Virus record (IMG/VR): IMGVR_UViG_3300033489_000007
Coordinates: 1,342 to 65,341 of that record
Direction: 5' to 3' (one strand)
DNA: 64,000 bases
Origin: a virus
This document shows positions 4,812 through 48,643 of this stretch, in pieces. The translations under genes and the position numbers were made by a program. The notes beneath the pieces were generated by a model that searched no databases, was not told the origin of the DNA, and saw only the letters and a program-made list of their open reading frames with translations. Position 1 is the first letter of the stretch; every line of letters starts with the position of its first letter.

Positions 4812-5054
4812 ATGACTCAACTGTCTACGGGATTTGTAACGCTGGGTGTAGGCCCGACTTTAATTGTGCCAGCTCGGGTTGGTAGGAAAGAATTAAGACT
4901 CATTCCCTCCACTTCTCCCGCCCCAACGATAGGAGATAGCACTTTGAATTCTACTAATGGGTTTCCCGTGGGAGCTAGCGGATTGGTCCTACTGGATATG
5001 GAGGGTGAGGTGTATGGGAAGAGTGGATACATGAGTTATTTAGAAATTTACTAA
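4812..5054 (+). CDS. hypothetical protein (80 aa)
   Basis: ORF with RBS GGGAG upstream. Confidence 0.3.
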   Translation: MTQLSTGFVTLGVGPTLIVPARVGRKELRLIPSTSPAPTIGDSTLNSTNGFPVGASGLVLLDMEGEVYGKSGYMSYLEIY

Positions 5055-5055
5055 T

Positions 5056-6579: not shown

Positions 6580-6797
6580 TAATCCCGTACGGCATGCCGG
6601 AGCCTGATTGGTTTGACACCACCACCCTCGATCTGGTTCAATATGGGCCATTGGCTCGGTATGAGGGTTCATGGCGGGAGTGTGCTGTGCAGTGGCTACA
6701 GAACCCGCAAATCGCCGCTTTTGACGTGCCTCGTCCAGACGGGTTTGACGATTGGCGTCAATGGGCCTCTAGATTTAATCAAGCTATTTTCGGGTGA
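6576..6797 (+). CDS. hypothetical protein (73 aa)
   Basis: Coupled ORF with ATGA-type overlap. Confidence 0.35.
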   Translation: MIIPYGMPEPDWFDTTTLDLVQYGPLARYEGSWRECAVQWLQNPQIAAFDVPRPDGFDDWRQWASRFNQAIFG

Positions 6798-8325: not shown

Positions 8326-8387
8326 ACTTTCTCTTTGGGAACCAACCCCCACCATCCGTTACTACTTATGGTAGTTCGACGTCGTCA

Positions 8388-10217: not shown

Positions 10218-10236
10218 CCAATGCGAGTAGAGAAAT

Positions 10237-13200: not shown

Positions 13201-13764
13201 CTATATTCAATGCTTAATTCACCGTCGACCGACATCAACGCCGCGCGCCGCTTAGTCGGTTCTCCTGACATCACCGATAAGTTGCAAGCGGTGTTCGACA
13301 AGCCAGCAGAGTTTAAGGTGTTTAAGGCGGCACTTGACCGTGAGATGCAAAACTTTGAGCACACTAAACCGTTGCTTACTGAGGCGGCGCGGGCGCGCAA
13401 AACTACAGCGGCTGGGGGTACTTCGATCCTGGAGACCATGGACCCACATTTGCGTGAGGCCCCTGGCGTCGGGGCCTTATCATGGCTTACCCGTAGCTTG
13501 AACATTCTGCGCCATCAGTGGCCGATGACGGACGAGACCGCCGATAAGGTAGCTACGGTATTATCTAAGGGCGACCCTAAAGACGCCAGCGCCGCTTTGT
13601 CCAAGTTGGAAGACGCTGCCGTGCGGCTGTCCAAGCGCAAGAAATTATCCGGTAAAGCCGCTATGGTTGGTGCTGCGGCTGCCGGGGCACTTGCCCGTCC
13701 GACGCCATTACCGCACCCGGACGCTCTACCGGAGGAGCAGGAGGAAGCCGATGCCGTCCCGTAG
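10237..13764 (+). CDS. large internal virion / ejection-type protein (1175 aa)
   Basis: Very long Ala/Gly-rich alpha-helical ORF comparable in size to podovirus core/ejection proteins or a tape-measure protein. Contains AGGKV motifs. Confidence 0.5.
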   Translation: MPYDDTDLETVDDLGYDEPPASALDAVLASARTTTPEAKRYAQQILDAGLAAKDTTTPVVITGMEDSAEATRKALQEARARLVAHRMNPGGRWLSMAAGFGKPANTIGQTMGNVASSMLDYNATTDKNVAGRNKDLLGLDTAEIGAGAPVLDAKMKMEQLRQKNQAALMAQALRTMGTSTASTTTVPKSLSAYGKQAQDEGLTPGTPQFANRVRQLYGTATKQRNASAGIDVEELDTQERVRIAADYGVPVAPDLGAGLSTKERAARRSIESRQAQKKLDALATDAEAAQTDITDADRFMVLNEEERSGPAVGMLPGLSDAAQEMDSISSRLSRQMRNKGEGQTSDYDAKQFLKATFSRTKNYDANDNIATAFKVKKQLVLDKQSYMDDYFAVNPNGTASHAESMWRRYLNDNTIFDKASQGKLKLNPDRKSYKEYFSGAVPVEHKAAGGKVGSAVKALKSLSNTVQGAEPDVEEMVRGTKHMEGVPTSTRERLNALYYQMKEAQATGQDPSVAREALLNHLGELYLTNSPSLKLTSPELAPQPPQIDMRSRPRTLEEIARSVDAFGVQKKAGGGKVSEPSIPEGMLLSALQGGTMGLSDEMLGAGDAESLARQRELLRRFMQKYPMLSGASATAGTLPLAMVPGGSGLTGMAARGAGFGAASGVGGGEGPEDRLYAAMQSGALGTGAGVLGGLAAKYGTSGALSMADHARGMPTLTSADRRMVGALQRDKTDPATVLGALRSAQRQKVPSTVFDEAGPNTRALANAAIAKGTPQGEQLSTDLAQRQMGARGRVNERINQSLKPNEYFDELDKLKGDLYTNAKPLYDAAYKNAPPVPFNTVGPILDNDFGRKALKDAVKLMKADQVPVSKGAVMGAGKKAGVSSLNLQTLDYTKRALDDMINAEEATGSTNKGRILRKMRNNLVAQLDAVSPDYVQARQQYAGDLEMVDALKSGREEFSQMTPEEVRRKVAKMGFSERDAYRSGVAQNLYSMLNSPSTDINAARRLVGSPDITDKLQAVFDKPAEFKVFKAALDREMQNFEHTKPLLTEAARARKTTAAGGTSILETMDPHLREAPGVGALSWLTRSLNILRHQWPMTDETADKVATVLSKGDPKDASAALSKLEDAAVRLSKRKKLSGKAAMVGAAAAGALARPTPLPHPDALPEEQEEADAVP

Positions 13765-15184
13765 TGCTAAACAAGCCCGATTTATGGCTGCCTGCAGTCA
13801 CGGTGCTAAATATTCGTCGTGCCCGCCCTCTAAAGTGTCGCATGAGTTTAATCAAGCGGACAAGGGCACCGGGGTATTCAAGAAAGCCGATGGCGGCCTA
13901 GCTAAGTTGCGTACACGCTATCGCGGCTCTAAGCCCGCCACGCCCGAAGATGAACTCACGGTCAGTGAGGGTGCCCCCACGCCAAAGTTGAAGGCGCTCC
14001 GGGCCGCGGCGGGCACGCTGACCGGTAATGAGAAACACGAGTATTTGCCCAGGGCTCTGCGCTCACTAGTGACTCAATTCGCCACTCTTGGGCCGGATGG
14101 CCAACCGGCGTTACCCGGTATTCACGGTAAGTCGGTCGACCAACCCGGGTTGGTCGACTCGGCACTGTCGTTGCCCGAGTTGGGGCCACTCTTGGGGCAA
14201 TTATTGGTGGCCGCTGATCAAAAGTGGCCTTCGACCACGCCGCTCAAGAACCTTGACTTTGGGTTCGAAAAGCTCGCTAATTGGGACACACCGCAGTGGT
14301 CGAAGGACGCCGCCGAGCGATACAGTCGCCTAGACACCGCCACCCGCACGGGTATGGGCCTGTCCCGTCCCCGTGGCTTCGGGGAGCACGCCGCCGACTC
14401 GCTCGGTGTGATGGCGGGGCAGATACCGCTGATTGGCGGCGTACGCGAGGCGGGGACGGCGGCGAAGGGTGTCCGGAGGGTACTTGGTGCTGTCCCTGAG
14501 TATCTTGGGCCGACCATTACCCCTAGCGTGGGGGCATATTCATCTGGTACAATCGGCGGTGGTGCGCTAGGGGTACTTGGCGACCCGGATCAAGGCGCTG
14601 AATCGAACGTAACACATTGGTCCAAAGGTGGCTATATGAGCAAGACTCTAGGGCAATTACGTAATAAATATGCTGACGGCGGTAAAGTCGGTAAGTCAGC
14701 TGAGGCTGTCAAGGCAATCAAGAACGCCATGTCGCATCTTGCGAACCGCGACAACCAGTCAGCGGTGTCGGCCTTGCAGTCTAATAAAGAGGCGGCGTCC
14801 GACCCCAATGTTAAAGCGGCGATCGGCGACCTAATGAAAGCCAAGCAAAACTCGGCAGCTCAGCGCCTAAATAGGATATTAGAAAGTGACTCCAATGTTA
14901 ACGCTATGCCGATGCTGGCCAAGGGTGGCAAGGTGGGGGCGGTGACCGCTGGGACGCAAAAAATGATTGATAGCTTAAAGGCGCTGGGCCATTCCGACGA
15001 GGAGGCGTTAGTAATAGCTAAAGCAGCTAAAGCTAAAGACTCGGTTATGCGAAGCCGGGCCACCCGGCACCATGGGGTCGACGCGGACATCGATTCTGAT
15101 TTTAACGATGACTACCCCCCGTTTGATAAGGCCGATGGCGGCTCTGTTTCATTCGATGATTATGTTTCATCACTTTTAGGATAA
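13751..15184 (+). CDS. virion protein (477 aa) with repeated ADGG / KGGKV motifs
   Basis: ATG at 13751 overlaps the upstream stop (ATGCCGTCCCGTAG), suggesting translational coupling. Four ADGG/KGGKVG motifs. Confidence 0.45.
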   Translation: MPSRSAKQARFMAACSHGAKYSSCPPSKVSHEFNQADKGTGVFKKADGGLAKLRTRYRGSKPATPEDELTVSEGAPTPKLKALRAAAGTLTGNEKHEYLPRALRSLVTQFATLGPDGQPALPGIHGKSVDQPGLVDSALSLPELGPLLGQLLVAADQKWPSTTPLKNLDFGFEKLANWDTPQWSKDAAERYSRLDTATRTGMGLSRPRGFGEHAADSLGVMAGQIPLIGGVREAGTAAKGVRRVLGAVPEYLGPTITPSVGAYSSGTIGGGALGVLGDPDQGAESNVTHWSKGGYMSKTLGQLRNKYADGGKVGKSAEAVKAIKNAMSHLANRDNQSAVSALQSNKEAASDPNVKAAIGDLMKAKQNSAAQRLNRILESDSNVNAMPMLAKGGKVGAVTAGTQKMIDSLKALGHSDEEALVIAKAAKAKDSVMRSRATRHHGVDADIDSDFNDDYPPFDKADGGSVSFDDYVSSLLG

Positions 15185-15194
15185 ATGAGGTTTT

Positions 15195-15803
15195 ATGAAT
15201 AAGTTAATTGCAAGCGCGTTGGGGCTGTTGCTAGCCCTGCAGAACATTGCCGTAGGTCAGGCCGCGCCTACTCTCACTTTCACCGCTCAGACTACTACAG
15301 GCAACGGGTCGGTTGTCCCGATTCTAACGTGGTCAACCACTCCAGCTGCCACCTCATGTACCGCGTCGGGGGACACCACTTGGACCGGAACTAAAGCGGC
15401 ATCGGGCACCGCAACCCTATCAGCTGTTACCAGCAGTAAGACTTATAATCTTACCTGCACGTGGCCTGCCGACTCTTCAGCTGTTTTAACTTGGGTTCCT
15501 CCTACTCAAAATACCGATAATTCACCCTTCACTGACCCGAACGGGTACAACATCCACTACGGTACGTCAAGTACAGCGTTATCACAGACACTGAAAATCC
15601 CCAGTCCTACCACACTGACCACTACCATTAGCAATCTAGCAGTCGGCACGTGGTTCTTTTGTATCGGCACGGTTAATCTCAATAATGTTGAAGGACCTTG
15701 TTCAAACATCGCCAGTAAAGTTTTTGCCACCGGATCGGTGTCGCGTAGTGTCGGAATCACCGTCAACCCTGTGCCAGCGGCTGGCGTTTTGACCGTATCT
15801 TAA
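15195..15803 (+). CDS. secreted Ig/FN3-like beta-rich protein
   Basis: Signal peptide MNKLIASALGLLLALQNIAVGQA followed by a Thr/Ser-rich beta sequence with conserved W/C positions. Confidence 0.5.
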   Translation: MNKLIASALGLLLALQNIAVGQAAPTLTFTAQTTTGNGSVVPILTWSTTPAATSCTASGDTTWTGTKAASGTATLSAVTSSKTYNLTCTWPADSSAVLTWVPPTQNTDNSPFTDPNGYNIHYGTSSTALSQTLKIPSPTTLTTTISNLAVGTWFFCIGTVNLNNVEGPCSNIASKVFATGSVSRSVGITVNPVPAAGVLTVS

Positions 15804-16372
15804 TCCATCGGGTCCGGGCCGCCCAGCTCTGGGAACACCTCAACTATGTAGTTGACCGCCCGGACCCATTCTATTTGTGGATACCGCTTTTGCGTGGTAT
15901 CCAAGTGTTTCCATAGGCTCCGCTTGATTACGGCTTCCACGTCCTCACAGGCACCACCATATTTCTTAATGTAAGTTAGAGCTTCCATATGGTCCGCCAG
16001 CTTTACGATAGCCTGACCGGGGGTATTAACAACCGCGCGGTTGGTGTTAATAGCTTGGGGGTACACCAGTTGTAGTGACATACCCTCCAACTTATCTAGC
16101 AAGCCTGGGTTAATGCTTTCTATCATAGCCTTGGCGGGCGTCGGTATGTCGCCGGTTATTGTTTCAGCTAGGTCATGAGTTAGGGCGTACTCAAGCGTTA
16201 ATTGTTTCTCTGGCGAGTTGTGTGGTGTCGGATATAGAATGTCGTAAAGCACGCTAGTAATCAGCCATACGTTATAGCTGTGTTCCGCCACTGATTGCGT
16301 GCGGTTGACAGCGACTATAGACCAACGTGGTACACCGCCCACGCGTAGGCATTTGACTAGATCCGCTTTCAT
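15800..16372 (-). CDS. datZ: HD-domain dNTP phosphohydrolase, YfbR/DatZ-like
   Basis: RTQSVAEHSYNV and HDLAETITGDIPTP match the HD motifs of YfbR-type 5'-deoxynucleotidases. Start chosen at the ATG with ATGA overlap to the MazG-like gene. Confidence 0.65.
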   Translation of the reverse strand: MKADLVKCLRVGGVPRWSIVAVNRTQSVAEHSYNVWLITSVLYDILYPTPHNSPEKQLTLEYALTHDLAETITGDIPTPAKAMIESINPGLLDKLEGMSLQLVYPQAINTNRAVVNTPGQAIVKLADHMEALTYIKKYGGACEDVEAVIKRSLWKHLDTTQKRYPQIEWVRAVNYIVEVFPELGGPDPMD

Positions 16373-16725
16373 TCTTTCTGCTCCACTGGCGGGTGCTTGA
16401 TGGCTACGTGTTGATACACCCCAGCCACCGGGTCGAAGTTCCACATGCGCCGGTCGTTCACTTCCATTTTGTTAGCCAGTGCCGATGGTATGTCAACCCC
16501 CCACATCATCGCCAAGTCCATAAGTAGGATGAAAGTATCAGCCAGCTCCGGGCCAATGTCCTTGACACCTTTTTCCTTTTTATGTTGAATTAGCTCCGGT
16601 ATTTCCTCCATGACTAATTTAGTGAATGCGCCGTAGTCGGTGCGCTTCGGGAAAGTACGGTTGGCCCACGCGTGGATTTCCTGCTGGACTTCACGGATGT
16701 TGTTCCAATCGATATCTTGTCTCAT
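16369..16725 (-). CDS. mazZ: MazG-like nucleoside triphosphate pyrophosphohydrolase (MazZ-like)
   Basis: 118 aa all-alpha protein with EEIPEL ... ELADTFILLMDLAMMWGVD, the pattern of dimeric MazG/HisE pyrophosphatases. Confidence 0.65.
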   Translation of the reverse strand: MRQDIDWNNIREVQQEIHAWANRTFPKRTDYGAFTKLVMEEIPELIQHKKEKGVKDIGPELADTFILLMDLAMMWGVDIPSALANKMEVNDRRMWNFDPVAGVYQHVAIKHPPVEQKE

Positions 16726-16961
16726 TTAAGTACTCTCTTATCGTATTCCGATATTAATTTACTGGCGTTGGGGTGCTTCATCCATCTCAAAACTAGACGA
16801 TTTATAGCTGCGTCACAATTGCCACACAAGGGTCTATAGTTATTCCCGTCACTACATATCTGCCATTGGTATTTTGCGGGACGACCACACCGGATACATT
16901 TTAACTTGACTATCCCGATAGCAGTATAGGGAGTATTACGTTTAGTGTTCCAATCAGCCAT
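16722..16961 (-). CDS. zinc-ribbon protein (79 aa)
   Basis: CIRCGRPAKYQWQIC ... LCGNCDAAIN is a Cys4 arrangement. Confidence 0.4.
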   Translation of the reverse strand: MADWNTKRNTPYTAIGIVKLKCIRCGRPAKYQWQICSDGNNYRPLCGNCDAAINRLVLRWMKHPNASKLISEYDKRVLK

Positions 16962-16968
16962 CTTAACC

Positions 16969-18099
16969 TCAAAACGGCATTAAAATATCACCGTCGACAG
17001 GCGTCAAGGTCCCGTTTTCCATGTTGACGCCGCACACGTCGGACGTGTCCGGACCGAACGACAGCAGTCGAACATAGGCGTCGGTGGCTCCTTGCACTAT
17101 GTTCATTTGAGCTAACACGTATTCAGGAATTGGGTCGCCAATCTTCACGGTTTGGCCGGGCTCCAACAGGTAATCGCAAAAAGTCAAAGCCATAATTGTT
17201 GGGTTGTTGATGTAAGCCGATTCGTGCAGTTGTTCGCGGCTTAATGAAAACACACGCCGGGGCAGTTTTGTTACCGTGGTCAACTCCGGTTCGCGGCCCA
17301 AGTCTTTCTTCCAATCCAATTCCTCTTGGTCCTCGTAATAACCGCCCGACGTTCCTATCTGATTACCGTCGGCGTCGAAGCGGTTAGCAACGCGGATCGG
17401 GAAGGTGCGGCACACACCTATCACTGTCGTTGGTGTACTCCATGGCAGTCTGCAGTCGGCTAAAATTTGATTTACCGATACGTCGCGGGATGTGGTGTAT
17501 GGGTAGAAGCGCGAATGGATTGACAAGCTGGAGCCTTGTGCGCCCTCCACTAACATGTGTCGCGATGTTTTAACGGCATGGTTGTAGCTGTCCTCGTCGA
17601 TCATTATTTCAACGCCTAACCCAGACAGCGACATTAGCACGTCACGGTTAAGGTGGCCCACTATGTTGTTGCACCCCGGGTCTCGGTGCATTTTTTGAAT
17701 TACAGCCGCCGCGCTGCCCTTCATGGTGCTGCCTATTCGCACATACTTTTGTTCCTCCTCCGAATGATGCGGCAATAGCAACGCCGCGTTGGGGTGGATA
17801 ATAATATTTTTACCCTTCATAGCATCACCGGCAGCTACGATTTCATTAAGCAGGGCGTTGACGTTCAGTACGGAGCCCGGGCCGATCAAGATGGTGTGCA
17901 CTGAGGGGGCCACCGCCGATGACGCCAGCATGGTGTGCACATATTTCTTGTCACTGTCTCGGAAGGTGTGACCCGCGTTAGGTGCCCAGGCGGTCGCTGC
18001 GGTGTCAAACATGCCCGACTTAGAGGCCAGGGAACCAGCAATTTGGCCTTTACCGCAAGAACCCCATTGCATGTCAACAATAACTGTGCGCTCGGTCAT
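16969..18099 (-). CDS. purZ: adenylosuccinate synthetase homologue, PurZ-like (N6-succino-2-amino-2'-deoxyadenylate synthase)
   Basis: 376 aa. The N-terminal P-loop VIVDMQWGSCGKGQIAG matches PurA (QWGDEGKGK) but with Asp-Glu replaced by Ser-Cys. A PurA-like fold is recognisable throughout. Lies inside a DatZ/MazZ/DpoZ neighbourhood. Confidence 0.75.
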   Translation of the reverse strand: MTERTVIVDMQWGSCGKGQIAGSLASKSGMFDTAATAWAPNAGHTFRDSDKKYVHTMLASSAVAPSVHTILIGPGSVLNVNALLNEIVAAGDAMKGKNIIIHPNAALLLPHHSEEEQKYVRIGSTMKGSAAAVIQKMHRDPGCNNIVGHLNRDVLMSLSGLGVEIMIDEDSYNHAVKTSRHMLVEGAQGSSLSIHSRFYPYTTSRDVSVNQILADCRLPWSTPTTVIGVCRTFPIRVANRFDADGNQIGTSGGYYEDQEELDWKKDLGREPELTTVTKLPRRVFSLSREQLHESAYINNPTIMALTFCDYLLEPGQTVKIGDPIPEYVLAQMNIVQGATDAYVRLLSFGPDTSDVCGVNMENGTLTPVDGDILMPF

Positions 18100-18653
18100 A
18101 TAAATTCCTCTAATAATTTGTTGCCTTTAGCGGCGTTTTCTTTGAAACTAGTGATTCTCAAGTTGGTTTCTACATGCAACCCACACACTGAAATGCCTCT
18201 CAATGGTATTTCATGGTCTACTACTTTACCTTGTCTGCGGGCGTCTGCGTATATTTCGGCTATCTTGGACCGATCAGCCCATGGGGGTATTCTGGCTGTC
18301 ATTACTATCTCTCTTTCTCTGGCTGCGGTTATATATCTATCTCTAACTTTATTATAGTTATCTCTATGCCATTGGGCCCTAGCCTCATTTGATTTTTTGC
18401 GATATTCTGAGTTTTCTCTTAGTTTGATCATCCTTATCCTAGCCAAGTTCAGCATCTTATCGCGATAAGGGTGGCCTGCCGTGGCCCTCTTTAGGGCCTT
18501 CGACCGGTTAATCATGCCTTTATGGCACCACACACAGCTGCGCGTCTTGATATACCGCACACTATGGCCGCATTTAGGGCAAGGTTTACCTATTATTCGG
18601 GCCGAAGTCAAGTTGGGTTCACCCGGTTTTCGTATCATTTGCTTGCCGCCCAC
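18096..18653 (-). CDS. HNH homing endonuclease (paralogue of 7735..8325)
   Basis: PPWADRSKI ... VDHEIPLRGISVCGLHVETNL ... NAAKGN. Same architecture and motif order as the other HNH. Confidence 0.75.
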   Translation of the reverse strand: MGGKQMIRKPGEPNLTSARIIGKPCPKCGHSVRYIKTRSCVWCHKGMINRSKALKRATAGHPYRDKMLNLARIRMIKLRENSEYRKKSNEARAQWHRDNYNKVRDRYITAAREREIVMTARIPPWADRSKIAEIYADARRQGKVVDHEIPLRGISVCGLHVETNLRITSFKENAAKGNKLLEEFI

Positions 18654-20467
18654 CAGTTTTCTCCTATGCCTAGGTCGGCCCGTATAGGTATCCTAAATTT
18701 AATCGGGGTGTCGACCCCATCAAACTTCTGAAGAACGTTTCTTATTTCTTCTGACAATTCTTTACGCCTATCCCTTCTGGCTGAAATGTCGAACTCGTCA
18801 TGTACAACGACCATCAATTCCGCCTCTCCTGATTGTTTTAATAGTTTGTCCACCTCTATCATTTTTACCTTCATACAGTCGGCGGCAGTGCTTTGGTACA
18901 GCAAGCCAGCTGCTTTGTGTGCGCCGTCCCCGTCCGGAAAGCGGATATGCCTACCTACTGGCGTCAGGATATAGCCACGCGATTTAGCCACGGATTCTAC
19001 GCTATTTTGTAGTTTACGCACTCCCTTGATATTGTCGTGATACTTGGCAAAAAGTGCTTTAGCCTCAGGACCCGCGACCAAGTAGCGTCCGCTGGGGTGC
19101 AGTGAATAAGGTAGACCGCATTGCTTTGCGAGTTCCCCCGCCCCCATCCCGAAAACGCATGCAAGGTTAATTTGTTTAGCGTTGGCCCCACCGGTTTTCT
19201 GGTCACGGTCACGAGGCAACCCCGTAAGACTGGCGATGAGCGAATGAAAGTCGGTCTTGTCGTCTTGGGCATACATTTCGTTGATACGGTAATCATTGAG
19301 GTATTGGGCGAATATGCGAAAGTCCATCTGGCTCCAATCATAGCATAGCCAGTCGTCCCCCTCGTCAGGAACAAAACATGCCCGGACAATGGCAGCCATT
19401 TTTTTGTTGCGTTTATGAATCTGTTGTAACGCTGGTTCTGTAATAGAAAGTCTTCCAGTATAGATTCCATTACCGTCTTCGGTACGCGTTTGGTTGATGT
19501 TGGCATATACGTAACCCTTGTGATTCATTTGTAGGATGTATTTACCGATGAACACATCACGGGCCTTGATGTAGCCGCGCAGATCTACAATCATCTGGGC
19601 CTCGGGTAGCGTGCATTGTTGCAATTTCACCGAGTCTAATGATGCCGCTCCTTTTTCCGTTTTCTCAAGTTTAGTGCCGTCTTTCAAGTGCCAGTTGCCA
19701 TCCTCTTTTTGATGGCAACCTAGTAGGTCCTTTACTTGTGGCCCTGAATTGACGTTCATCGGTCGGCGCGCGATTTCTTCCAATTTGTTCTGTAAGTCAT
19801 ATATGATTTCACCCATCTTGCGGTGGGCTTCCTCGGCGGCGGGGATGTCGACCCGCACGCCGCGCCGTTCCATCCCGATAACTACCGGCAGTAAGTCATG
19901 CTCAAGGCGGTTTACTTGGTGAAGGTTGTCCGACTCGATTATCTTTTCCTGCTCTTCCCATATGAGGTAAGCCAGCTCGGCGTCGATCTTGGCGTATTTA
20001 GCCACCACCGACTCAGGTGCCCTGGGAAGGTTACGGATTTGTGTGTCCTTATCTGGCTTGCCACCAAAAAGACGGGCCAACTCAACCCAGATTTCTTCCT
20101 TGTGCCGTTGTAGGTATTTAAATGCGACGGCATCGAGCCCGTATTCATATTTGTTCTCTTCAATAATAGCTTCACGGATCATTGTGCAAGCTAGTCGGCC
20201 CATCGGGAACTCAATACCGGTCTCCCTAAAGAAATGGGCGTCGAATTTGATGTTGTGGTTAATCCATAGCTTTACGCTAGCGAACGCGTGCCGCGCCCAT
20301 ATTAAGTTGTTACCCTTACGCAAGTCAAAATACTCGGACTCAAGCGCGCCAGTTTCCGATCGGAACGCGATAGCAACCCCGAATAGTTTATCCCGCTGCC
20401 AGGATAGCCCGGTGGTTTCACCGTCGGCTGCTACTACGCGGCCGTTAAGATTGGGGTACTCAACCAT
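18635..20467 (-). CDS. dpoZ: family-A DNA polymerase with 3'-5' exonuclease domain (DpoZ-like)
   Basis: Exo I DGETTGL, Exo II KFDAHF, pol motif A DWSQMDFRIFA, motif B KTGGANAKQINLACVFGMG and motif C VVHDE are all present. Confidence 0.85.
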   Translation of the reverse strand: MVEYPNLNGRVVAADGETTGLSWQRDKLFGVAIAFRSETGALESEYFDLRKGNNLIWARHAFASVKLWINHNIKFDAHFFRETGIEFPMGRLACTMIREAIIEENKYEYGLDAVAFKYLQRHKEEIWVELARLFGGKPDKDTQIRNLPRAPESVVAKYAKIDAELAYLIWEEQEKIIESDNLHQVNRLEHDLLPVVIGMERRGVRVDIPAAEEAHRKMGEIIYDLQNKLEEIARRPMNVNSGPQVKDLLGCHQKEDGNWHLKDGTKLEKTEKGAASLDSVKLQQCTLPEAQMIVDLRGYIKARDVFIGKYILQMNHKGYVYANINQTRTEDGNGIYTGRLSITEPALQQIHKRNKKMAAIVRACFVPDEGDDWLCYDWSQMDFRIFAQYLNDYRINEMYAQDDKTDFHSLIASLTGLPRDRDQKTGGANAKQINLACVFGMGAGELAKQCGLPYSLHPSGRYLVAGPEAKALFAKYHDNIKGVRKLQNSVESVAKSRGYILTPVGRHIRFPDGDGAHKAAGLLYQSTAADCMKVKMIEVDKLLKQSGEAELMVVVHDEFDISARRDRRKELSEEIRNVLQKFDGVDTPIKFRIPIRADLGIGENWWAASK

Positions 20468-20714
20468 CTACAAACCCAATATCGCGGGCGTAACACTTGA
20501 TCTTCAAACACACAAGCATCTTTTCTATTTCCCATTGTATAAGGTCGCGGCACTCGTATGAATTAATCAACTCTTTAAATGTGAACCTAGATATTTTACG
20601 CTCCTCACACAGCCCCGTCCCAGGGTCCTCTAAACACACTACATAATGGTCGGAGCACATATCCCAATGCTCCCATACTATCAAGGTGCGCCGGTCCATT
20701 CTAGTCTTCGACAC
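20460..20714 (-). CDS. hypothetical protein (84 aa)
   Basis: Coupled ORF between the exonuclease and the polymerase. Confidence 0.35.
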   Translation of the reverse strand: MSKTRMDRRTLIVWEHWDMCSDHYVVCLEDPGTGLCEERKISRFTFKELINSYECRDLIQWEIEKMLVCLKIKCYARDIGFVDG

Positions 20715-21402
20715 GGGTTTTACCCAGCAGTGCCGCCCGCAAGTATTGGTCCACGTCCTCTTGTCGCAGTAACCATGTTTTATAACTGTATGGGAGGTCT
20801 TTGATCAACTCGCCCTTGTGCTTGCCGAAGTTGATGCGGCTCGGGACGCGGGCCATCTCGCAGAAGTCCCATAATTTCTCCAGCGTATCGATATGTGATG
20901 GCAACTCCCGTAAGATTATGTCGAAAATCATGAAAGTAATCATCACGTCGACTTTGGCTCCATGGGCTTCTTTTAGAAGTGTCCGCAGAGCCCCGCTATC
21001 GTTTCTTTCCTCGTATATCGGCCCTAGCAATTTATAAGCTAGAGCCCCTAGTTTGTGGCTGGCGTCCGGCCAGAAATGGCGGGCCAGGGCTAACGTGCAA
21101 ATTCGTTTAATTTTGGGCTTTCCTATTACTTCCCAATCAAAATCAATATTGTGCCCTATTAAATAATCAGTGTTGGGGGGTAGTTCAAAACTCGCTGCGG
21201 GCGGTTCGTCTACCAACTCGCTATCAAAAATATGGTGGGCGGCCATTGCGTCGAACTCAATCGGTTTGCCTGGATTGAATCTACGACACCAGATATCGTC
21301 CATTTTCTCGATCGGGATCGGTGCGTGGGCTATTTCGATAGCAACCGGCCGATCAAAGCCGGTAGTTTCGGTGTCAATAATCAACGCCTTATCAAATTTC
21401 AT
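20701..21402 (-). CDS. DnaQ-like DEDDh 3'-5' exonuclease
   Basis: Motifs IIDTETTG, GHNIDFD and H....D. Start taken at MKFDKALI, 5 nt after the helicase stop. Confidence 0.7.
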   Translation of the reverse strand: MKFDKALIIDTETTGFDRPVAIEIAHAPIPIEKMDDIWCRRFNPGKPIEFDAMAAHHIFDSELVDEPPAASFELPPNTDYLIGHNIDFDWEVIGKPKIKRICTLALARHFWPDASHKLGALAYKLLGPIYEERNDSGALRTLLKEAHGAKVDVMITFMIFDIILRELPSHIDTLEKLWDFCEMARVPSRINFGKHKGELIKDLPYSYKTWLLRQEDVDQYLRAALLGKTRVED

Positions 21403-22783
21403 AACTTTGCTCACCCTCGTAAATGAAAAGATTATGGCGGGCTCGCGTCGCCCCCACGTAATAAACTCTATGTTGCGAGTCAGGGTTGATAGACGCCTCA
21501 CGTAGTGCTGCTTGCGATTGCGCCGTAACCAAGTGCACCTCGTCCGCCTCCATGCCTTTAGCGCCGTGGATCGTACTTATCCTTACTTTAGGCTCGGATT
21601 TGACGTCTACGGCATGTAAGTACTCCTCATGCTTCCAGAACACGTTGACTATCGACAATTCCCGACTGTGTAACTTATCCACGATTGCATCAATACCAAT
21701 CGTGTCATATATGGCCTTCCCTTTGGGGTTCAAGCATGACACGATGTGGTTAGCCGCCTCCTGTGACCCGTCGAATTTCTCAGCTAAGCGTAGCGCACGC
21801 CCGGCTTTAGTGTCAAGGGGCGCGGGCATGCCGCCGAGCGCCGTATAGGGTACGACCATATCCAATAATCCCGCTTCAACCTCCTCGCGGGTAAACCGGT
21901 CGCCGTACAGGATAAGGCTATCAGCGCCGGGAGTGATGACGATGTCATACGGACCACCGGCGCGCTCCACGCGGCCCGGCTCACTGGTGGGGGCGTATTG
22001 CTTCGGGACGCGGCGCTCGACTCGTTCGATGATTTGTGTGGCCACTTCGTGCACTTTCTGCGGCACCCGGTAGGACTGCCCCAAAACCTCGACTGACGCC
22101 CCGTGGCGGTTACCGAAGTCGTCCATAAGGTGGGGGTCGGCCCCTGCAAATGAGTACAATGCTTGGTCATCGTCGCCTGCGATGATTACTTCGATGTTGG
22201 GGTTCAAGCGGATTATATTGTCCACCACAGCCCAGTGCAAACGTGACAAGTCTTGGGCTTCGTCTATGAACAACATCGGGATTGGGCGGGGGCTGCGCTT
22301 CAATTTGCTGCCATCTTCTAGCATATCTGAGAAATCTTTGTAGCCAAACTTGGCCTTCCAGGCGGCGTAGGAGGTGACGAAGGTATTAAACTCGGCGAAA
22401 GTGCCAGGGTGACTGGTGTATTTGTGGTAGGCTTCGATCGGGCTCACTTGCTTGGCTCGCGCAAACGACATCAAGTCTACGTACTTGCGGCCCTCGCCGT
22501 CGTCGGACATATCCAAGCCGAACGCCTCTGTAAATTCAGTGAGTTTGGCGTCATCCACCGTCTGGGCTTTGGACATGGATAATGCTTTGAAGCACCAGCT
22601 ATGCAATGTCTGAATGTCTACGCCGCGTGTGTTGTTCGCGCCGAATCGATTAACTGCCTCAAACGCTGCTGCCCGAGTGTGCGACACGAACATCGTGCCG
22701 GGCGTGGCCTTATTGTTCAACACTTCGATCAACCGGCGAGTCTTGCCGGTGCCCGGGGGACCGTATATAACGTTTGCTTTCAT
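21392..22783 (-). CDS. SF1 UvrD-like DNA helicase
   Basis: Walker A GPPGTGKT. Motifs FIDEAQD, IIAGDDDQALYSF, TIHGAKGME and YVGATRAR. Confidence 0.8.
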   Translation of the reverse strand: MKANVIYGPPGTGKTRRLIEVLNNKATPGTMFVSHTRAAAFEAVNRFGANNTRGVDIQTLHSWCFKALSMSKAQTVDDAKLTEFTEAFGLDMSDDGEGRKYVDLMSFARAKQVSPIEAYHKYTSHPGTFAEFNTFVTSYAAWKAKFGYKDFSDMLEDGSKLKRSPRPIPMLFIDEAQDLSRLHWAVVDNIIRLNPNIEVIIAGDDDQALYSFAGADPHLMDDFGNRHGASVEVLGQSYRVPQKVHEVATQIIERVERRVPKQYAPTSEPGRVERAGGPYDIVITPGADSLILYGDRFTREEVEAGLLDMVVPYTALGGMPAPLDTKAGRALRLAEKFDGSQEAANHIVSCLNPKGKAIYDTIGIDAIVDKLHSRELSIVNVFWKHEEYLHAVDVKSEPKVRISTIHGAKGMEADEVHLVTAQSQAALREASINPDSQHRVYYVGATRARHNLFIYEGEQSYEI

Positions 22784-23196: not shown

Positions 23197-24000
23197 TCAG
23201 TATGGCACCACCTTGTCGGCCATTTTCATCTGCTCTTCGTGGTCGGTGTCCAACACCACCTTGCGGTTGCCGCTGGCGATAGAATCGTACATCTTTTCGG
23301 CTTGTTCATATACTTCACGCGCCGGGAATCCCGAGATACCAAACGAGTAGTTGTAGTAGTCGTCGCCGTTGGCGTTCTGCTCCTCGACGCCCATCGCAGT
23401 GTAGGTACGGCTGAACCGGTCGCCGCCCGCGATGCGCACCAACGAATTAAGCTGCCGCGATACTTTCAACTTGGTGCGGGACATCGAAATTACCGCCTCG
23501 TCGATTGTGCCATCCTCGCAGATAACCAACACGATTTGTTGGCCGGTTTCAATTGCCTCGAACTCTTCCGGCGCTTCCTCCTCTTCCTTTATGCGCTGTT
23601 GCGCCTCAGCGTTGGATTGGAACGCGCCCCGAAACCCGCCACCCTTTTTGCGGTCACGCCACACCAAATATTCGGTGCGGTAATAGACAGGGCAGATCAG
23701 GGCCGCGTGACCATACAACTTACGGGTGAGTGAATTGAACAGCATGCCGGGTTCCGCGCCCTCGATGTATTCAGGGTCGGATTTCTTGAGGCACGGCGAC
23801 AGCGCCTGCACCAAATCGAGCCGTGGGATGATAATATCCGTGGCTTTGACGTTTTCGCTACCTCGATTGCTGCCCTGCTTAATGTAGTCGGGCACGGCGA
23901 CAGCGGTCTGATTCGGTTTGACGGGGGCGTTGACAGCGCCGGACGCTGGGGCGGTCATTTTTTCAGCTTTAGACATATTAGCCTCGTGTGATTTGAGCAC
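23197..24000 (-). CDS. hypothetical protein, possible ssDNA-binding/recombination function (267 aa)
   Basis: Sits in the replication block. Has an acidic EEEEAPEEFE segment but no confident family assignment. Confidence 0.4.
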   Translation of the reverse strand: MLKSHEANMSKAEKMTAPASGAVNAPVKPNQTAVAVPDYIKQGSNRGSENVKATDIIIPRLDLVQALSPCLKKSDPEYIEGAEPGMLFNSLTRKLYGHAALICPVYYRTEYLVWRDRKKGGGFRGAFQSNAEAQQRIKEEEEAPEEFEAIETGQQIVLVICEDGTIDEAVISMSRTKLKVSRQLNSLVRIAGGDRFSRTYTAMGVEEQNANGDDYYNYSFGISGFPAREVYEQAEKMYDSIASGNRKVVLDTDHEEQMKMADKVVPY

Positions 24001-24484
24001 GTTGGATGGGGGTAACTTTCAAAATATCGTCGGTCGGGATCGGTTTACCGTCCTTGATGCGGCCACGGACGAAGGCGGCCAGAGTTTGAGCGTTAACGTT
24101 GCGGGTGATCATGTCCTCCAGCTCGTTTTCGCTAAGCCAATTAAACAGGCCATCTTTGTCCAACTGCTTGACTTGGACGTCCGGCACTGTATTGCATCTA
24201 CCAATACCGTCCACCTTTACGCTAGTGATGTCTTCAGCATCCATGCGGGCTGGGATGATCGCAAAGCGCAACATGTCGTAAATTTCTTCAAGCGGCGACT
24301 TTACTGCCTCGGCGATGCGTGATTTAAGGGTGTTTACCTCGTCCATGATCTTGATGCAATCCACTGCGCCGTTGGTCGGCCTCAGGGCGCGCTCTTTAAG
24401 ATCGGCCACGTAGCTCTGTAGAAATGCGATGGCGGCATTGGCCTTCAGGGCGCGCGGGTCAGGCTTGTATTCTGCTTCAGTCAT
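23978..24484 (-). CDS. hypothetical protein (168 aa)
   Basis: Start taken at the ATG with ATGA overlap to the upstream gene. Confidence 0.4.
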   Translation of the reverse strand: MTEAEYKPDPRALKANAAIAFLQSYVADLKERALRPTNGAVDCIKIMDEVNTLKSRIAEAVKSPLEEIYDMLRFAIIPARMDAEDITSVKVDGIGRCNTVPDVQVKQLDKDGLFNWLSENELEDMITRNVNAQTLAAFVRGRIKDGKPIPTDDILKVTPIQRAQITRG

Positions 24485-24825
24485 TTCGACACCCCCATCG
24501 TGTGGCACATGTATCGTTGCGTGCGGTCATCCCACTTCAGGATCTTGTGGTTGCCTCCTTTGCTGGTTAATAGCATCCCGACCATCATGATTTTAACGGG
24601 GGACCCGGTCGGCACGAGGTAGTCATAACCGGGGATGTAATCAGCCAGTTGATGCGCGGCCTCGGATACTATCGCCGCGTTCAATTTGCACATACCATCT
24701 TCATTAGGGGCGTCCGGGGCCAGCTTTTGGCTTTCCATGAACACGACTTCACCGAAGGTGGCTGCCGCTGAGTAGTCGAAGGGCATACGCTCCACGATGT
24801 ACACGTTTGGTTTACTTCTAGACAT
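24481..24825 (-). CDS. hypothetical protein (114 aa)
   Basis: Coupled ORF. Confidence 0.4.
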   Translation of the reverse strand: MSRSKPNVYIVERMPFDYSAAATFGEVVFMESQKLAPDAPNEDGMCKLNAAIVSEAAHQLADYIPGYDYLVPTGSPVKIMMVGMLLTSKGGNHKILKWDDRTQRYMCHTMGVSK

Positions 24826-24869: not shown

Positions 24870-25079
24870 CTACGGAATAGATTCAATCGCCTTTTTCTCT
24901 GTAATAATCCAAGCTACGGGTAGATTCTGCGGGTCGGCCAACATATGTATCACGATTGCCTGAATTTCAAGTTTGTCATTATCTAATAAATTAGACCACA
25001 ACGCTCTAGCTTCGTTTTCGGATGCATAGGCTGTTTTATACACGATATCTGGATTACTCATGTTCTTCCTCCAGTTCAA
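24870..25079 (-). CDS. hypothetical protein (69 aa)
   Basis: Small ORF. Confidence 0.3.
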   Translation of the reverse strand: MNWRKNMSNPDIVYKTAYASENEARALWSNLLDNDKLEIQAIVIHMLADPQNLPVAWIITEKKAIESIP

Positions 25080-25494
25080 GCTGCAATAACAATAGGGCGT
25101 TCCATGCTATTTGAGCTCTGTGTCGCATACCATCCTTATCGAATTTGCCCTCGGCGTGGCGCTTCAAAGTGTGACGCCCCAAGGCGTTGGCATAACGCTT
25201 CTCCTTGTTTTCAACTTTGCGCCAGCCGCCGAATCCCTTATACTTCTCTGCCCCCGCGCCCGACACTTTCGCGACCTCCAACAGAGCTAGGGCAAAGTAA
25301 TCAAACAGACCCTCGTCAACCGGCTCCTTACCCGCGTCCGTCTTAGCGCCGGGGGTTGAGGGATGCAAGCCAGCTGGGTCTATTTCACGTGGCACTAAAT
25401 CAATGATCCGACTGGGGTGGTGCTCTTTGCAATATTCTATAGCGGGGCTACCGCACTTGGTACAATACCATGTGATAGGTATTTTATCACTCAT
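25054..25494 (-). CDS. DUF550-like putative dATP/dGTP pyrophosphohydrolase with N-terminal zinc ribbon
   Basis: CTKCGSPAIEYCKEH, then EKYKGFGGWRKV ... ALGRHTLKRHAEGKFDKDGMRHRAQIAWNALLLLQLEL, matching the KY..W / RH..G.D..G..H.A.A..N.L.LL.L pattern I recall for DUF550. GGAGGG RBS upstream. Confidence 0.5.
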   Translation of the reverse strand: MSDKIPITWYCTKCGSPAIEYCKEHHPSRIIDLVPREIDPAGLHPSTPGAKTDAGKEPVDEGLFDYFALALLEVAKVSGAGAEKYKGFGGWRKVENKEKRYANALGRHTLKRHAEGKFDKDGMRHRAQIAWNALLLLQLELEEEHE

Positions 25495-28942: not shown

Positions 28943-29260
28943 TTAAGCCGCTGCCTTTTCGCGCAGAGCGCGCCGTAGCATATTACCCAGGTTCATGCGC
29001 TGCATGCCGGGGTTCAAGTGTTTGAAACGCTTGCGTAGATCAACCTCTTCCTCTTTGATCTTCTTTGCTACGAGTGTATAAACTTCGTCGATCGTCTTGC
29101 CTCCCAACATCTGGGCAACGTCGTCACCGCTATCTCGGGACGTGGCTCCCTTGGCATTCTTCACAGTACGATAGTGGCTGATGTCGTGTTCAATGCCCGC
29201 GATGGCACGTACGCCTGCCGATGTCTTGTCAGTCTTGGTAGACTTTTTCTTACTAGCCAT
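28943..29260 (-). CDS. small basic protein, paralogue family member 1 (C-terminal HLNPGMQRMNLGN motif)
   Basis: 105 aa, Lys-rich. Shares its C-terminal ~45 aa with 34803..35228 and 48107..48643. Confidence 0.5.
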   Translation of the reverse strand: MASKKKSTKTDKTSAGVRAIAGIEHDISHYRTVKNAKGATSRDSGDDVAQMLGGKTIDEVYTLVAKKIKEEEVDLRKRFKHLNPGMQRMNLGNMLRRALREKAAA

Positions 29261-34802: not shown

Positions 34803-35228
34803 CTAGGCTGCCGCCTGTTGGTTCAGCGCCGCACGGATTCGGTTGCCCAAATTCATGCGTTGCATGCCGACGTTGAGGTGGGCGTACTTGGTCTCAAGTT
34901 CTTTCTTGCTGACCTTCAGCATCTTTGATGCCTTCTTATACACTTCCTCCAGCGGCGTGCCGCGCAAGTCTTTGGCCACCTTGTCGGCGCAGTCCAGGGA
35001 TGAATTGCCCTCGGCGCTCACCACGCCTTCGTAGCGGCTGGTGTCATAGCGCTTGTTACCGATCCGGCGCAAGCCGTCCTTTTCGGTAATCAGCAACTGC
35101 GAGGCGCGGGCCTTTTTGGTCTCGCCCTTCGCGTCGGTGTAGGTAACCCAGCCGCGTACAGTTGCTTGCACTTGCGACGCCGCGATTCTCTTCAACTTTT
35201 TAGCGCTCATTGCATTCTCCTCTATCAA
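34803..35228 (-). CDS. small basic protein, paralogue family member 2
   Basis: 141 aa. C-terminal YAHLNVGMQRMNLGNRIRAAL. Its N-terminal half is also similar to member 3. Confidence 0.5.
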   Translation of the reverse strand: MIEENAMSAKKLKRIAASQVQATVRGWVTYTDAKGETKKARASQLLITEKDGLRRIGNKRYDTSRYEGVVSAEGNSSLDCADKVAKDLRGTPLEEVYKKASKMLKVSKKELETKYAHLNVGMQRMNLGNRIRAALNQQAAA

Positions 35229-48106: not shown

Positions 48107-48643
48107 TTAGGCGTTCTTCGGGTCGTTGACGATCGCACGCTTGCGTTGCGCGCCCCGAATCCTGTTGCCTAGGTTCATGCGTTGCATCCCAGGGTTGAGC
48201 GCCTTGTATTGGGCACGCAGGCTGGTTTCGGTCACGCCCAGGTCTTTAGCCGCACGGGCGTAGACGTCGTCCAGCTCCAAGCCGCGCAGCTCAACAGCCA
48301 ACGCGTCACCCGAATCGAGCGTCTTGTTGCCGGTGGCTGACTTGGCCTTGACGTAGCCAGAGCAGTCGTGCTTGGTGTTGCCGACCCGGCGCAGCTTGAC
48401 GCCCGCGTCCTCTTCCTCGCCCTCGTCGTCTACCTTGCTTTTGCCCGCGTCCAACGCCTTTATGGCCGCTGTGACTGTTTTGGCAGTTAGCTGGGGTTTC
48501 GGGCTTCGGGCCGATTGCTCCTCGCCCAGCACCTCGATGTCCTTGTTGCGGACCTTGCACACAGTGCCCGCCTCGTTGTAGTAGGTCGTCCAGCTGCCTT
48601 TGCGCTCGATGAACTGCTCTTTGGTGATCTGTCGCTTTGCCAT
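48107..48643 (-). CDS. small basic protein, paralogue family member 3
   Basis: 178 aa. C-terminal YKALNPGMQRMNLGNRIRGA. Confidence 0.5.
   Translation of the reverse strand: MAKRQITKEQFIERKGSWTTYYNEAGTVCKVRNKDIEVLGEEQSARSPKPQLTAKTVTAAIKALDAGKSKVDDEGEEEDAGVKLRRVGNTKHDCSGYVKAKSATGNKTLDSGDALAVELRGLELDDVYARAAKDLGVTETSLRAQYKALNPGMQRMNLGNRIRGAQRKRAIVNDPKNA

Follow-up and report, generated by a model that had tools for sequence, protein, structure and literature searches.

The window analyzed here, a 64,000-nucleotide stretch of viral DNA (positions 1,342 to 65,341 of IMG/VR record IMGVR_UViG_3300033489_000007), is nearly the whole of a public 65,341-bp contig and harbors, at positions 15800 to 20467 of the − strand, a predicted gene cluster for the replacement of adenine by 2-aminoadenine (Z) in phage DNA. 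The cluster consists of six tightly packed open reading frames (ORFs), and the public gene calls on the same contig agree with them. From the upstream end, these are predicted to encode DpoZ, a ΦVC8-like family-A DNA polymerase with a 3'-5' exonuclease (610 aa, 18635..20467), an HNH/His-Me-finger-like free-standing endonuclease (180 aa, 18096..18638), PurZ, i.e., N6-succino-2-amino-2'-deoxyadenylate synthase (376 aa, 16969..18099), a 79-aa protein with a CxxC…CxxC putative zinc ribbon (16722..16961), MazZ, an unfused, small all-alpha MazG-like (d)NTP pyrophosphohydrolase of the S-2L-like MazZ-1 type (118 aa, 16369..16725), and DatZ, an HD-domain dATP triphosphohydrolase (190 aa, 15800..16372). 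A first-pass annotation, made from the sequence alone, had described DatZ-, MazZ-, PurZ- and DpoZ-like genes on the − strand of this interval as a complete-looking Z cluster. All four identifications held in residue-level and phylogenetic tests; a fifth pathway gene (DUF5664, 25054–25494) had been missed.

Stop and start codons overlap as ATGA at four of the five junctions (DpoZ/HNH-like ORF, HNH-like ORF/PurZ, zinc-ribbon ORF/MazZ, and MazZ/DatZ), and at the fifth, between PurZ and the zinc-ribbon ORF, the genes are 7 nt apart, with a GAGG Shine–Dalgarno sequence in the gap. Owing to the four overlaps we regard the cluster as one expression unit, in which the six ORFs are translationally coupled and lie at the 3' end of a long, leftward-running replication operon. 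The DatZ ORF of the first-pass annotation stands, though not its start: as listed (GTG 16444, 15800–16444) it overlaps MazZ by 76 nt, and the real start is almost certainly ATG 16372, which overlaps the MazZ stop as ATGA and gives the 190 aa also found in the public gene call. The HNH-like ORF (listed from 18653, 185 aa) most likely begins at ATG 18638, again overlapping the preceding stop (that of DpoZ) as ATGA. At the far end, DatZ and a convergent 202-aa ORF on the + strand (15195–15803) share overlapping stops in the palindrome TTAA (15800–15803), and thus there is no intergenic room for a terminator between the two transcription units. Between 15 and 30 kb, both promoter-like sites (16 vs. 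14.7 expected) and terminator-like sites (15 vs. 17 expected) occur at chance level, and a tRNA scan found none.

The core enzymes and a fifth pathway gene

The best PDB sequence match of each of the four enzymes is a characterized Z-pathway protein, while Pfam returns generic families for the cluster (Adenylsucc_synt, YfbR-like/HD, DNA_pol_A with exonuclease) and none for the 118-aa protein. For PurZ, the PDB matches fall off steeply, from ΦVC8 PurZ (E = 1e-63, 219 bits) and S-2L PurZ (4e-52, 181 bits) to 7VF6 (6e-16, 62 bits; labelled 'PurA-like adenylosuccinate synthetase', which we take to be PurZ0) and bacterial PurA (1e-8 or weaker, at most 59 bits). The protein matches PHROG 1211 ('2-aminooxy adenylosuccinate synthetase', E = 1.2e-71), and its top NCBIfam model is NF038379 (PurZ), 146 bits above any PurA model; the PurA models reach at most 131 bits vs. 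cut-offs of at least 368. Its identity is 25% to E. coli PurA, 33% to the PurZ0 of Arthrobacter phage Wayne, 39% to S-2L PurZ, and 39–45% to PurZ proteins.

Residues were mapped by alignment with the deposited ΦVC8, S-2L, PMBT28, PSA28, SH-Ab 15497, Wayne and E. coli sequences, and the list of PurZ determinants was taken from PMC8342488 and bioRxiv 10.1101/2025.10.22.683976. The shared catalytic core is intact (K17, N41, H44, T125, R139, Q188, T203, R281). The P-loop reads QWGSCGKG, where E. coli PurA has QWGDEGKG, just as the first-pass annotation had stated, and its claim that the PurA aspartate is replaced is borne out by Ser14 at the position of PurA Asp13; Ser replaces Asp13 in 100% of 147 phage PurZ-group sequences (PMC12884076). 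The other substrate-contacting positions are likewise in the PurZ state: T274 corresponds to ΦVC8 T262 in the 2-amino pocket, L279 stands at PurA R303 (2'-OH contact), and F307 and Y310 correspond to ΦVC8 F295 and Y298, which stabilize the adenine ring of ATP (bioRxiv 10.1101/2025.10.22.683976). The same holds for P141, P234, Y255, W263, G268, and S285. In a word-indexed search that yielded 2,883 homologs at E ≤ 1e-20, residues were counted over the 120 closest, and S14, T274, F307 and Y310 are invariant in all 120.

Phylogenetic placement points the same way. In bootstrapped neighbor-joining (NJ) trees (200 replicates), which are small and carry single outgroup representatives (one PurZ0, one PurA), the 376-aa protein groups with PurZ and outside canonical PurA, in a clade that excludes Wayne PurZ0 at 99% and E. 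coli PurA (the outgroup) at 100% bootstrap; the score gaps in PDB and NCBIfam agree with this placement. Within the clade it belongs to a metagenome-only subclade (93%), apart from ΦVC8, SH-Ab 15497, PMBT28, PSA28 and S-2L, that includes none of the seven cultured reference sequences in the tree. One argument of the first-pass annotation does not survive, namely that a PurA homolog in a phage is by itself diagnostic of a Z genome, as 481 PurA homologs are found in phage genomes and only ~150 of them in the PurZ group (PMC12884076). The diagnostic feature is the Ser for Asp13 together with clade placement. Given these features, we infer that the window PurZ makes dSMP (N6-succino-2-amino-2'-deoxyadenylate) from dGMP, aspartate, and ATP.

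The polymerase passes the cut-off of NCBIfam NF038380 ('aminoadenine-incorporating DNA polymerase DpoZ') with 677.9 bits vs. 500, and scores only 24 bits on the Wayne-type model NF038381. Its best PDB match is 7PBK (E = 1e-110; labelled 'DNA polymerase I', presumably ΦVC8 DpoZ), far ahead of Klenow (4e-36), and the NJ tree places it in the ΦVC8-like DpoZ group at 100% bootstrap, with Wayne DpoZ and Klenow outside. The signature described for ΦVC8-like DpoZ comprises insertions 1–3, Leu455/Phe459, Gly548, and helices E1/E2 with Arg/Lys161 and Met/Ile/Ala165 (PMC8599892). In the window protein, insertion 1 is present, as is insertion 3 (~12 residues vs. 20), the helix-O region is ΦVC8-like with an insertion 2 that is not delimitable from sequence alone, helices E1/E2 are extended and carry K140 and I144 (both among the variants permitted at R161 and M165), L435 and F439 stand in motif B (Klenow F762 and Y766), and the motif-6 deletion occurs with G521. 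The catalytic residues D15 and E17 of the exonuclease are also present. By homology, the enzyme would be expected to prefer dZTP kinetically over dATP.

DatZ is recognized by PHROG 7076 ('dATP triphosphohydrolase', E = 1.6e-25), by Pfam YfbR-like (E = 1e-13) and, as best PDB match, by S-2L DatZ (6ZPA, E = 3e-12), and it lies directly downstream of MazZ, next to the mazZ/purZ pair. It keeps the metal ligands (H31, H66, D67, E70, D127) and all S-2L specificity determinants (R16, W17, I19, Q26, A29, G74, P79, K81, K124). In S-2L DatZ these determinants were given as Trp20/Ile22, Arg19, Pro79, Lys81 and Lys116, with I22 sterically excluding 2-amino purines and W20 excluding ribonucleotides (PMC8065100), and the W20–I22 pair has been seen only in dZ-modified contigs (bioRxiv 10.1101/2025.10.22.683976).

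MazZ has S-2L MazZ as its best PDB match (7ODY, E = 6.6e-10) and matches the PHROG 'dATP/dGTP pyrophosphohydrolase' (E = 1.8e-9). Its identity is 44% to the PMBT28 protein, 42% to the SH-Ab 15497 gp40 DUF550 domain (E = 2e-22), and 38% to S-2L MazZ (E = 2e-14). In S-2L, E34, E35, E38, E50 and D53 bind the metal, D60 contacts the guanine N2 and Asn20 the O6 (PMC8342488); the window protein keeps the metal ligands (E40, E41, E44, E60, D63) and the N2 contact (D70), and has Phe25 at the position of Asn20, as in PMBT28 and PSA28. As the protein is nearer to the SH-Ab DUF550 domain than to S-2L MazZ, it is expected to hydrolyze dGTP and likely dATP as well. The MazZ of Zhou et al. acts on both, that of S-2L on dGTP only (PMC8342488).

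The missed fifth pathway gene, located between the genes for the SNF2 helicase and the Pam3 gp32-like protein (25054..25494, −), encodes a standalone DUF5664 domain (PF18909, 72.6 bits vs. a cut-off of 27, E = 2.7e-20; the domain is also in the public gene call) and is a predicted dATP/dGTP pyrophosphohydrolase. In SH-Ab 15497 and PMBT28, PF18909 is the N-terminal domain of a fusion with MazZ; in Wayne gp51 it stands by itself, in the same architecture as here. BLAST links the window protein to the fusion domain of PMBT28, not to Wayne gp51. What is a single SH-Ab-type fusion protein there is thus encoded in the window by two genes ~8 kb apart. The Wayne enzyme converts dATP, dUTP and dGTP to monophosphates, with a kcat for dATP ~tenfold that for dGTP (PMC12884076). 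Together, DatZ, DUF5664 and possibly MazZ would probably provide three dATP-removing activities.

The predicted pathway and its alternatives

Taken together, we consider the cluster to be the PurZ-type Z-genome module of a virulent-looking, uncultured ~65-kb phage, with a probability of roughly 85%. In such a phage, MazZ, probably with the standalone DUF5664 enzyme, would cleave dGTP to give dGMP and, very likely, dATP to give dAMP as well, and PurZ would join dGMP and aspartate to dSMP with phosphate from ATP or dATP, space for the 2-amino group being provided by Ser14, which replaces the catalytic aspartate of PurA. Host enzymes, i.e., PurB (adenylosuccinate lyase), guanylate kinase and nucleoside-diphosphate kinase, would carry dSMP through dZMP to dZTP. 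DatZ would meanwhile degrade dATP to deoxyadenosine and spare dZTP and dGTP, with Ile19 excluding 2-amino purines and Trp17 ribonucleotides, and DUF5664 and MazZ would probably destroy further dATP. Finally, DpoZ, as a proofreading, ΦVC8-like PolA, would replicate the genome with preference for dZTP over dATP. The case for Z in the DNA is strong, since the S-2L triad alone puts Z into E. coli DNA, albeit with partial substitution (PMC8342488), and since restriction digestion of environmental DNA physically enriched, as resistant dZ-DNA, metagenomic contigs with Ser14-type PurZ (bioRxiv 10.1101/2025.10.22.683976). In that study, 28 of 29 Ser14-type proteins from dZ-enriched contigs cluster with known PurZ. 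Resistance to restriction enzymes, which the first-pass annotation named as a consequence, should be taken as partial only, as 53% of the 147 enzymes tested were resistant or partly resistant (PMC12944874).

Several observations weigh against this interpretation. PurZ reaches 277.8 bits on NF038379, short of the cut-off of 300, and is at most 45% identical to the PurZ of any deposited phage; we did not treat the shortfall as disqualifying because the metagenome-only subclade diverges from cultured sequences. Three positions also depart from the PurZ pattern: Trp12 is the PurA state (F12 in ΦVC8, Y21 in S-2L) and occurs in 6 of the 120 closest homologs, Cys15 in the P-loop is unique among them (Thr is usual), and Asp309 stands at the position of PurA D333 (N297 in ΦVC8, Q308 in S-2L), so that the phosphate donor could differ. 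For MazZ, Pfam gives no hit at E ≤ 0.01 to PF04447, a family that does match S-2L MazZ, PMBT28 and SH-Ab, and its homology rests on BLAST and phmmer. In addition, Phe25 makes its specificity (dGTP only vs. dGTP and dATP) unpredictable, although this bears on substrate range and not on family membership. Lastly, gene content, gene order, coupling, residue conservation and clade membership are read directly from the DNA, while all enzyme activities and the presence of Z are deduced from them, as are the host-supplied steps.

The alternative that survives best retains the PurZ-type pathway and regards the window protein as a member of an intermediate subclade whose synthetase accepts GTP besides or instead of ATP/dATP. 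We think this unlikely. The donor motif reads LTFCDY in the window, LTKLDV in PurA, LTMLDQ in Wayne PurZ0 and LNFCNY in cultured PurZ (NFCNY in ΦVC8), and TFCDY hence appears as a hybrid, with the Thr and Asp of PurA/PurZ0 and the Phe and Tyr of PurZ. An anomaly of this one protein is ruled out, given that Asp309 is the majority state (100 of the 120 closest homologs); the equivalent D333 reads guanine in PurA, cultured ATP-using PurZ have Asn or Gln instead, and the subclade stands apart from all cultured PurZ (93% bootstrap). On the other hand, the residues that contact the adenine of ATP, F307 and Y310, are invariant, PurA Lys331 is gone, and Asp309 may simply be tolerated. The use of ATP/dATP has been described as a transition within PurZ (bioRxiv 10.1101/2025.10.22.683976), and the TFCDY subclade may mark an intermediate between the GTP-using PurZ0 or PurA and the ATP-using PurZ. 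The literature is itself inconsistent here, as PMC12884076 gives the ATP/GTP preference in an order opposite to its own introduction and to the preprint (10.1101/2025.10.22.683976).

It is also conceivable, but improbable, that the genes are intact and the substitution only partial, or the cluster poorly expressed, so that virion DNA is mostly canonical. The partial substitution obtained with the S-2L triad in E. coli (PMC8342488) is a precedent. Against it, a Z-preferring polymerase combined with two to three dATP-depleting activities is the setup of phages reported to show complete A-to-Z substitution (PMC12884076), the catalytic residues are intact in five enzymes, and the genes are tightly coupled within a replication operon.

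A PurZ0-type system as in Wayne and Gordonia phage Ghobes, i.e., a GTP-dependent synthetase accompanied by DutZ and DmtZ, is very improbable. Tong et al. reportedly found in 2023 that PurZ0 uses GTP, and the donor site of the window protein keeps Thr306 and Asp309 as in Wayne PurZ0 and PurA; a standalone DUF5664 gene and an HNH gene between polymerase and synthetase are further traits in common with Wayne. These resemblances are outweighed by the exclusion of Wayne PurZ0 from the PurZ clade (99%), the lower identity to it (33% vs. 39–45% to PurZ), the much weaker match to 7VF6, the assumed PurZ0 (6e-16 vs. 1e-63), the ΦVC8-like polymerase with its 24 bits on the Wayne-type DpoZ model, a DUF5664 protein that resembles the PMBT28 fusion domain and not Wayne gp51, and the presence of the PurZ-lineage accessory genes DatZ and MazZ. 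None of the scanned ORFs resembles a dUTPase or NDT gene. The weakest alternative, a host-derived auxiliary metabolic PurA (acting on inosine monophosphate, aspartate and GTP) among ordinary phage genes, is hardly credible and already effectively refuted at the sequence level: even though most PurA homologs of NCBI viruses lie outside the PurZ group (PMC12884076) and the window protein keeps the PurA states Trp12 and Asp309, it has Ser14, Leu279 and TFCD in place of Asp13, Arg303 and the (S/T)KxD motif (K331 being replaced by Phe), a PurZ-type LTTVTKLPRR instead of the GATTGRRRR loop, sub-threshold scores on PurA models (at most 131 bits vs. at least 368) and 25% of its residues in common with E. 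coli PurA, groups with PurZ at 99–100% bootstrap, and is flanked by DatZ, MazZ and DpoZ.

Relation to known Z-phages and a mosaic genome

Among cultured Z-phages, the relatives with the highest identities to the PurZ-type module of the window are Salmonella phage PMBT28, Pseudomonas phage PSA28 and Acinetobacter phage SH-Ab 15497 (siphoviruses, 43–48 kb; PurZ 40–45%, DpoZ 42–43%, MazZ domain 42–44%), of which SH-Ab 15497 supplied the enzymes characterized by Zhou et al. 2021 (as cited in PMC12884076). They have the same gene order as the window (SNF2, Pam3 gp32–34-like, UvrD, DpoZ, small ORF, PurZ, MazZ-type, DatZ). They also carry, just downstream of the cluster, one gene with a QRMNLGN domain (see below), of which the window has three copies. 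Unlike the window, they have DUF5664 and DUF550/MazZ as a fusion of 290–385 aa. For its part, the window has two additional ORFs within the cluster (HNH-like and zinc-ribbon), encodes a DEDD exonuclease as a separate gene, belongs to a genome of ~65 kb, and has structural genes akin to those of Caulobacter phage RLK.

Other Z-systems resemble the window in part. Cyanophage S-2L (Z-cluster structures 6ZPA, 7ODY, 7ODX) has the order purZ, mazZ, datZ, an unfused small MazZ, and DatZ determinants and MazZ metal ligands that are all conserved in the window. It differs in having Asn20 where the window MazZ has Phe, in a PurZ that is only 39% identical, and in lacking the DUF5664 gene, the QRMNLGN domain and DpoZ, as it employs a non-selective PrimPol and relies on DatZ (PMC8065100). 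Vibrio phage ΦVC8 (podovirus, 39 kb; PurZ structures 6FM1 and others) provides the best PDB matches for both the synthetase and the polymerase, and shares the Ser14 numbering as well as insertions 1 and 3, the L/F of motif B, the motif-6 deletion and the extended helices E1/E2. Its MazZ, however, is a short MazZ-2 variant, a primase gene lies between dpoZ and purZ, its donor motif is NFCNY vs. TFCDY, an insertion of its exonuclease domain (residues 117–127) is absent from the window DpoZ, insertion 3 of the latter is 8 residues shorter, and motif C is HDS vs. HDE in the window. The PurZ0 systems of Wayne and Ghobes (DutZ, DmtZ, DUF5664-1, Wayne-type DpoZ) lead to the same end product, Z-DNA, with dUTPase/NDT enzymes in place of DatZ and MazZ (PMC12884076). 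Wayne has a standalone DUF5664 of the same architecture and an HNH gene between polymerase and synthetase; its synthetase (33% identity) falls outside the PurZ clade and its polymerase is only 21% identical. The Z pathway has been known since 2021 and has been seen in hundreds of phages, and the present case is a divergent further example, not a new kind of system. Its differences from the characterized Z-systems are matters of degree, i.e., divergence, the donor motif, split genes, passengers, the additional DEDD exonuclease, and a larger mosaic genome.

Both interrupting ORFs reported in the first-pass annotation exist, and the labels given to them are tentative. That of the HNH-like ORF, which also matches PHROG 26577 (E = 6e-16), rests only on PHROG 1035 ('endonuclease VII', E = 5.5e-7) and a DH…N…N motif, with no match in Pfam, NCBIfam or PDB sequences; that of the 79-aa ORF rests only on the CxxC…CxxC spacing, with no significant family match, though the ORF overlaps the MazZ start as ATGA and is called as a gene in the public data. 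Neither has a homolog at its position in the closest relatives (including L008 and L009), and we therefore rejected them as conserved members of the cluster and regard both as lineage-specific passengers, not pathway components, the 79-aa ORF being an insert between purZ and mazZ. A paralog of the HNH-like ORF (36% identity, E = 1e-26, same PHROGs) is situated in the structural module (7735–8325, +) next to a gene with tape-measure-like matches, which is consistent with mobile free-standing endonucleases. In Wayne, an HNH gene (36024–36443) occupies the same intergenic position, between DpoZ and PurZ0, and its product shows no similarity to the window protein detectable by BLAST.

The Z cluster is only the downstream part of a block of ~13 kb that begins with the AEP primase and SNF2 helicase, ends with DpoZ, PurZ, MazZ and DatZ, and is syntenic with SH-Ab 15497, PMBT28 and BCSR129 in whole-proteome comparison. 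At its upstream end lie the primase (27184–28767, −; AEP-TOTE, E = 9e-13; PriCT_1) and the SNF2-family helicase (25487–27181, −; Pfam SNF2-rel_dom, E = 4.5e-32), the latter 38% identical to its SH-Ab 15497 homolog at the same relative position. Further down, Pam3 gp32/gp33/gp34-like genes (23197..24825, −; PF23992, PF23984, PF23977; E-values down to 2e-67) belong to the replication or recombination block shared with Z-phages, have syntenic homologs in SH-Ab 15497, PMBT28, BCSR129 and L008, and are followed by a UvrD/PcrA-type superfamily 1 helicase (21392..22783, −; Pfam UvrD-helicase, E = 3.5e-19), part of the shared replication module; it is 34% identical to its counterparts in PMBT28 and SH-Ab 15497, which lie immediately upstream of DpoZ. 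Directly upstream of dpoZ, the window has a DEDD (ExoX/DnaQ-like) 3'-5' exonuclease (20701..21402, −; PHROG 192, 'DNA polymerase exonuclease subunit', E = 2e-51; NCBIfam ExoX and DnaQ below cut-off). No homolog of it was found in the PMBT28, SH-Ab and L008 loci, and it is present although DpoZ has an intact proofreading domain of its own; in the relative L008, its place is taken by a 156-aa ORF and a gene for ThyX.

The terminase and many structural proteins (1–15800 and 50485–63072, +) match ~62-kb Caulobacter phages, of which RLK and RW are the nearest for the terminase (51% identity) and several structural proteins. Identities to RLK range from 35 to 70% over the terminase, a fragment of the major head protein and several virion proteins. 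No PurZ was found in the 50 kb of RLK examined, and its polymerase is unrelated, hence only the morphogenesis module is common to RLK and the window. The genome is thus a mosaic, in which a replication module of Z-phage type is combined with structural genes resembling those of Caulobacter phages. Neither of two other candidate groups of relatives qualified, as Burkholderia phage BCSR129 (66 kb, PurZ-positive) has the replication/Z block in common but not the structural genes, which sets the window apart from its group, and KPP25-type phages essentially only an AAA ATPase. A nucleotide search against 50,697 deposited phage genomes gave no match, and there is therefore no close cultured relative. 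Many PurZ hits lie on related metagenomic contigs of 64–72 kb, one of which, GCA_034680565.1 (65,216 bp), has the same architecture as the window; the exact PurZ sequence is already public on contigs of up to 65,341 bp (JGI, ENA, Logan; e.g., SRR10376092). The lineage may represent an additional uncultured Z-phage group beyond those described.

Several other genes of the − strand deserve mention. The AAA ATPase (490 aa, 38211–39683; phrog_10440, E = 1e-203) is 52–55% identical to proteins of otherwise unrelated phages, among them KPP25, phiR18, phiEaP8, vB_SalP_TR2 and Delftia phage ΦW-14, under depositors' labels that vary and include FtsH-like. The DNA of ΦW-14 has hypermodified thymine. Also present is a sigma-factor-like protein (41220–41717; phrog_1740, E = 4e-17). 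S-2L likewise has a sigma-70-like gene (S2L_15), an observation that may matter for how Z-containing promoters are transcribed. The early region further encodes an SPFH/Band-7 protein (37125–38114; Pfam E = 2.6e-20; PHROG 'lipoprotein') and a protein of the N4 gp49/Sf6 gp66 family (32598–32927; E = 1.5e-28).

The QRMNLGN domain and the diversity of Z-phages

Three paralogs on the − strand of the window share a C-terminal, ~75-aa helical domain with the invariant motif LNxG(M/Q)QRMNLGNxxR, which we refer to as the QRMNLGN domain. The first (28943..29260), of unknown function, was recognized by alignment, the second (34803..35228) by alignment and PHROG 8941 (E = 9e-17), and the third (48107..48643; PHROG 8941, E = 4e-19) has an N-terminal 'GxWTT' region as in the SH-Ab and PMBT28 versions. 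An AlphaFold2 model of the third has a mean predicted local distance difference test score (pLDDT) of 81 over residues 90–178. The domain has no Pfam family, is of 'unknown function' in PHROGs, and gave no informative structural match; we also found no mention of the gene in the available Z-phage literature. Its architecture varies among lineages, with a long tail of Lys/Ala/Glu in the Burkholderia homolog and a zinc ribbon at the N terminus in those of SH-Ab and PMBT28.

The distribution of this domain follows that of PurZ. Of the 50,697 deposited phage genomes in the collection, 57 contain the domain; every one of these belongs to the 62 PurZ-type records, and none is PurZ-negative. PurZ-positive records without it include, among those listed, S-2L, an Ochrobactrum phage, and Vibrio phage JSF9. 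The records with the domain are phylogenetically clustered, and a Fisher p-value for the association is only indicative. They nonetheless span at least seven distinct phage lineages of different morphotypes (ΦVC8-like, the Vibrio crassostreae K-series, ZP6, BUCT555, SH-Ab 15497-like, PMBT28-like, and Burkholderia). Of the best 80 QRMNLGN loci in IMG/VR, 47 have a Z-cluster gene within 10 kb (38 have PurZ), and several of the remaining loci are second copies on PurZ-positive contigs. The domain may merely travel with the Z module. We tentatively suggest, as a possibility that we would not yet favor, that it is an unrecognized, functionally linked component of PurZ-type Z-genome phages.

The practical value of the Z cluster described here is modest: it offers a further PurZ/DpoZ/DatZ/MazZ set with which ZTGC-DNA could be engineered. 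Its PurZ, which naturally carries Asp at the position of the donor base, lends itself to testing how ATP and GTP use diverged, and the score of this protein (278 bits vs. a cut-off of 300) warns that the subclade is under-called by curated PurZ models. The window adds to the known Z-genome phages a divergent, uncultured lineage with ~65-kb mosaic genomes, in which the Z module is seen moving within a larger replication block onto unrelated structural modules. This fits the view that Z-phages, of which at least seven gene-sharing groups are distinguished, were assembled by horizontal transfer (PMC12884076). Owing to its occurrence only in PurZ-positive records among deposited phage genomes, the QRMNLGN domain is a concrete candidate for a still-unknown function needed to live with Z-DNA, and it is the part on which a specialist might act, given that cultured models (ΦVC8, SH-Ab 15497, ZP6) exist.

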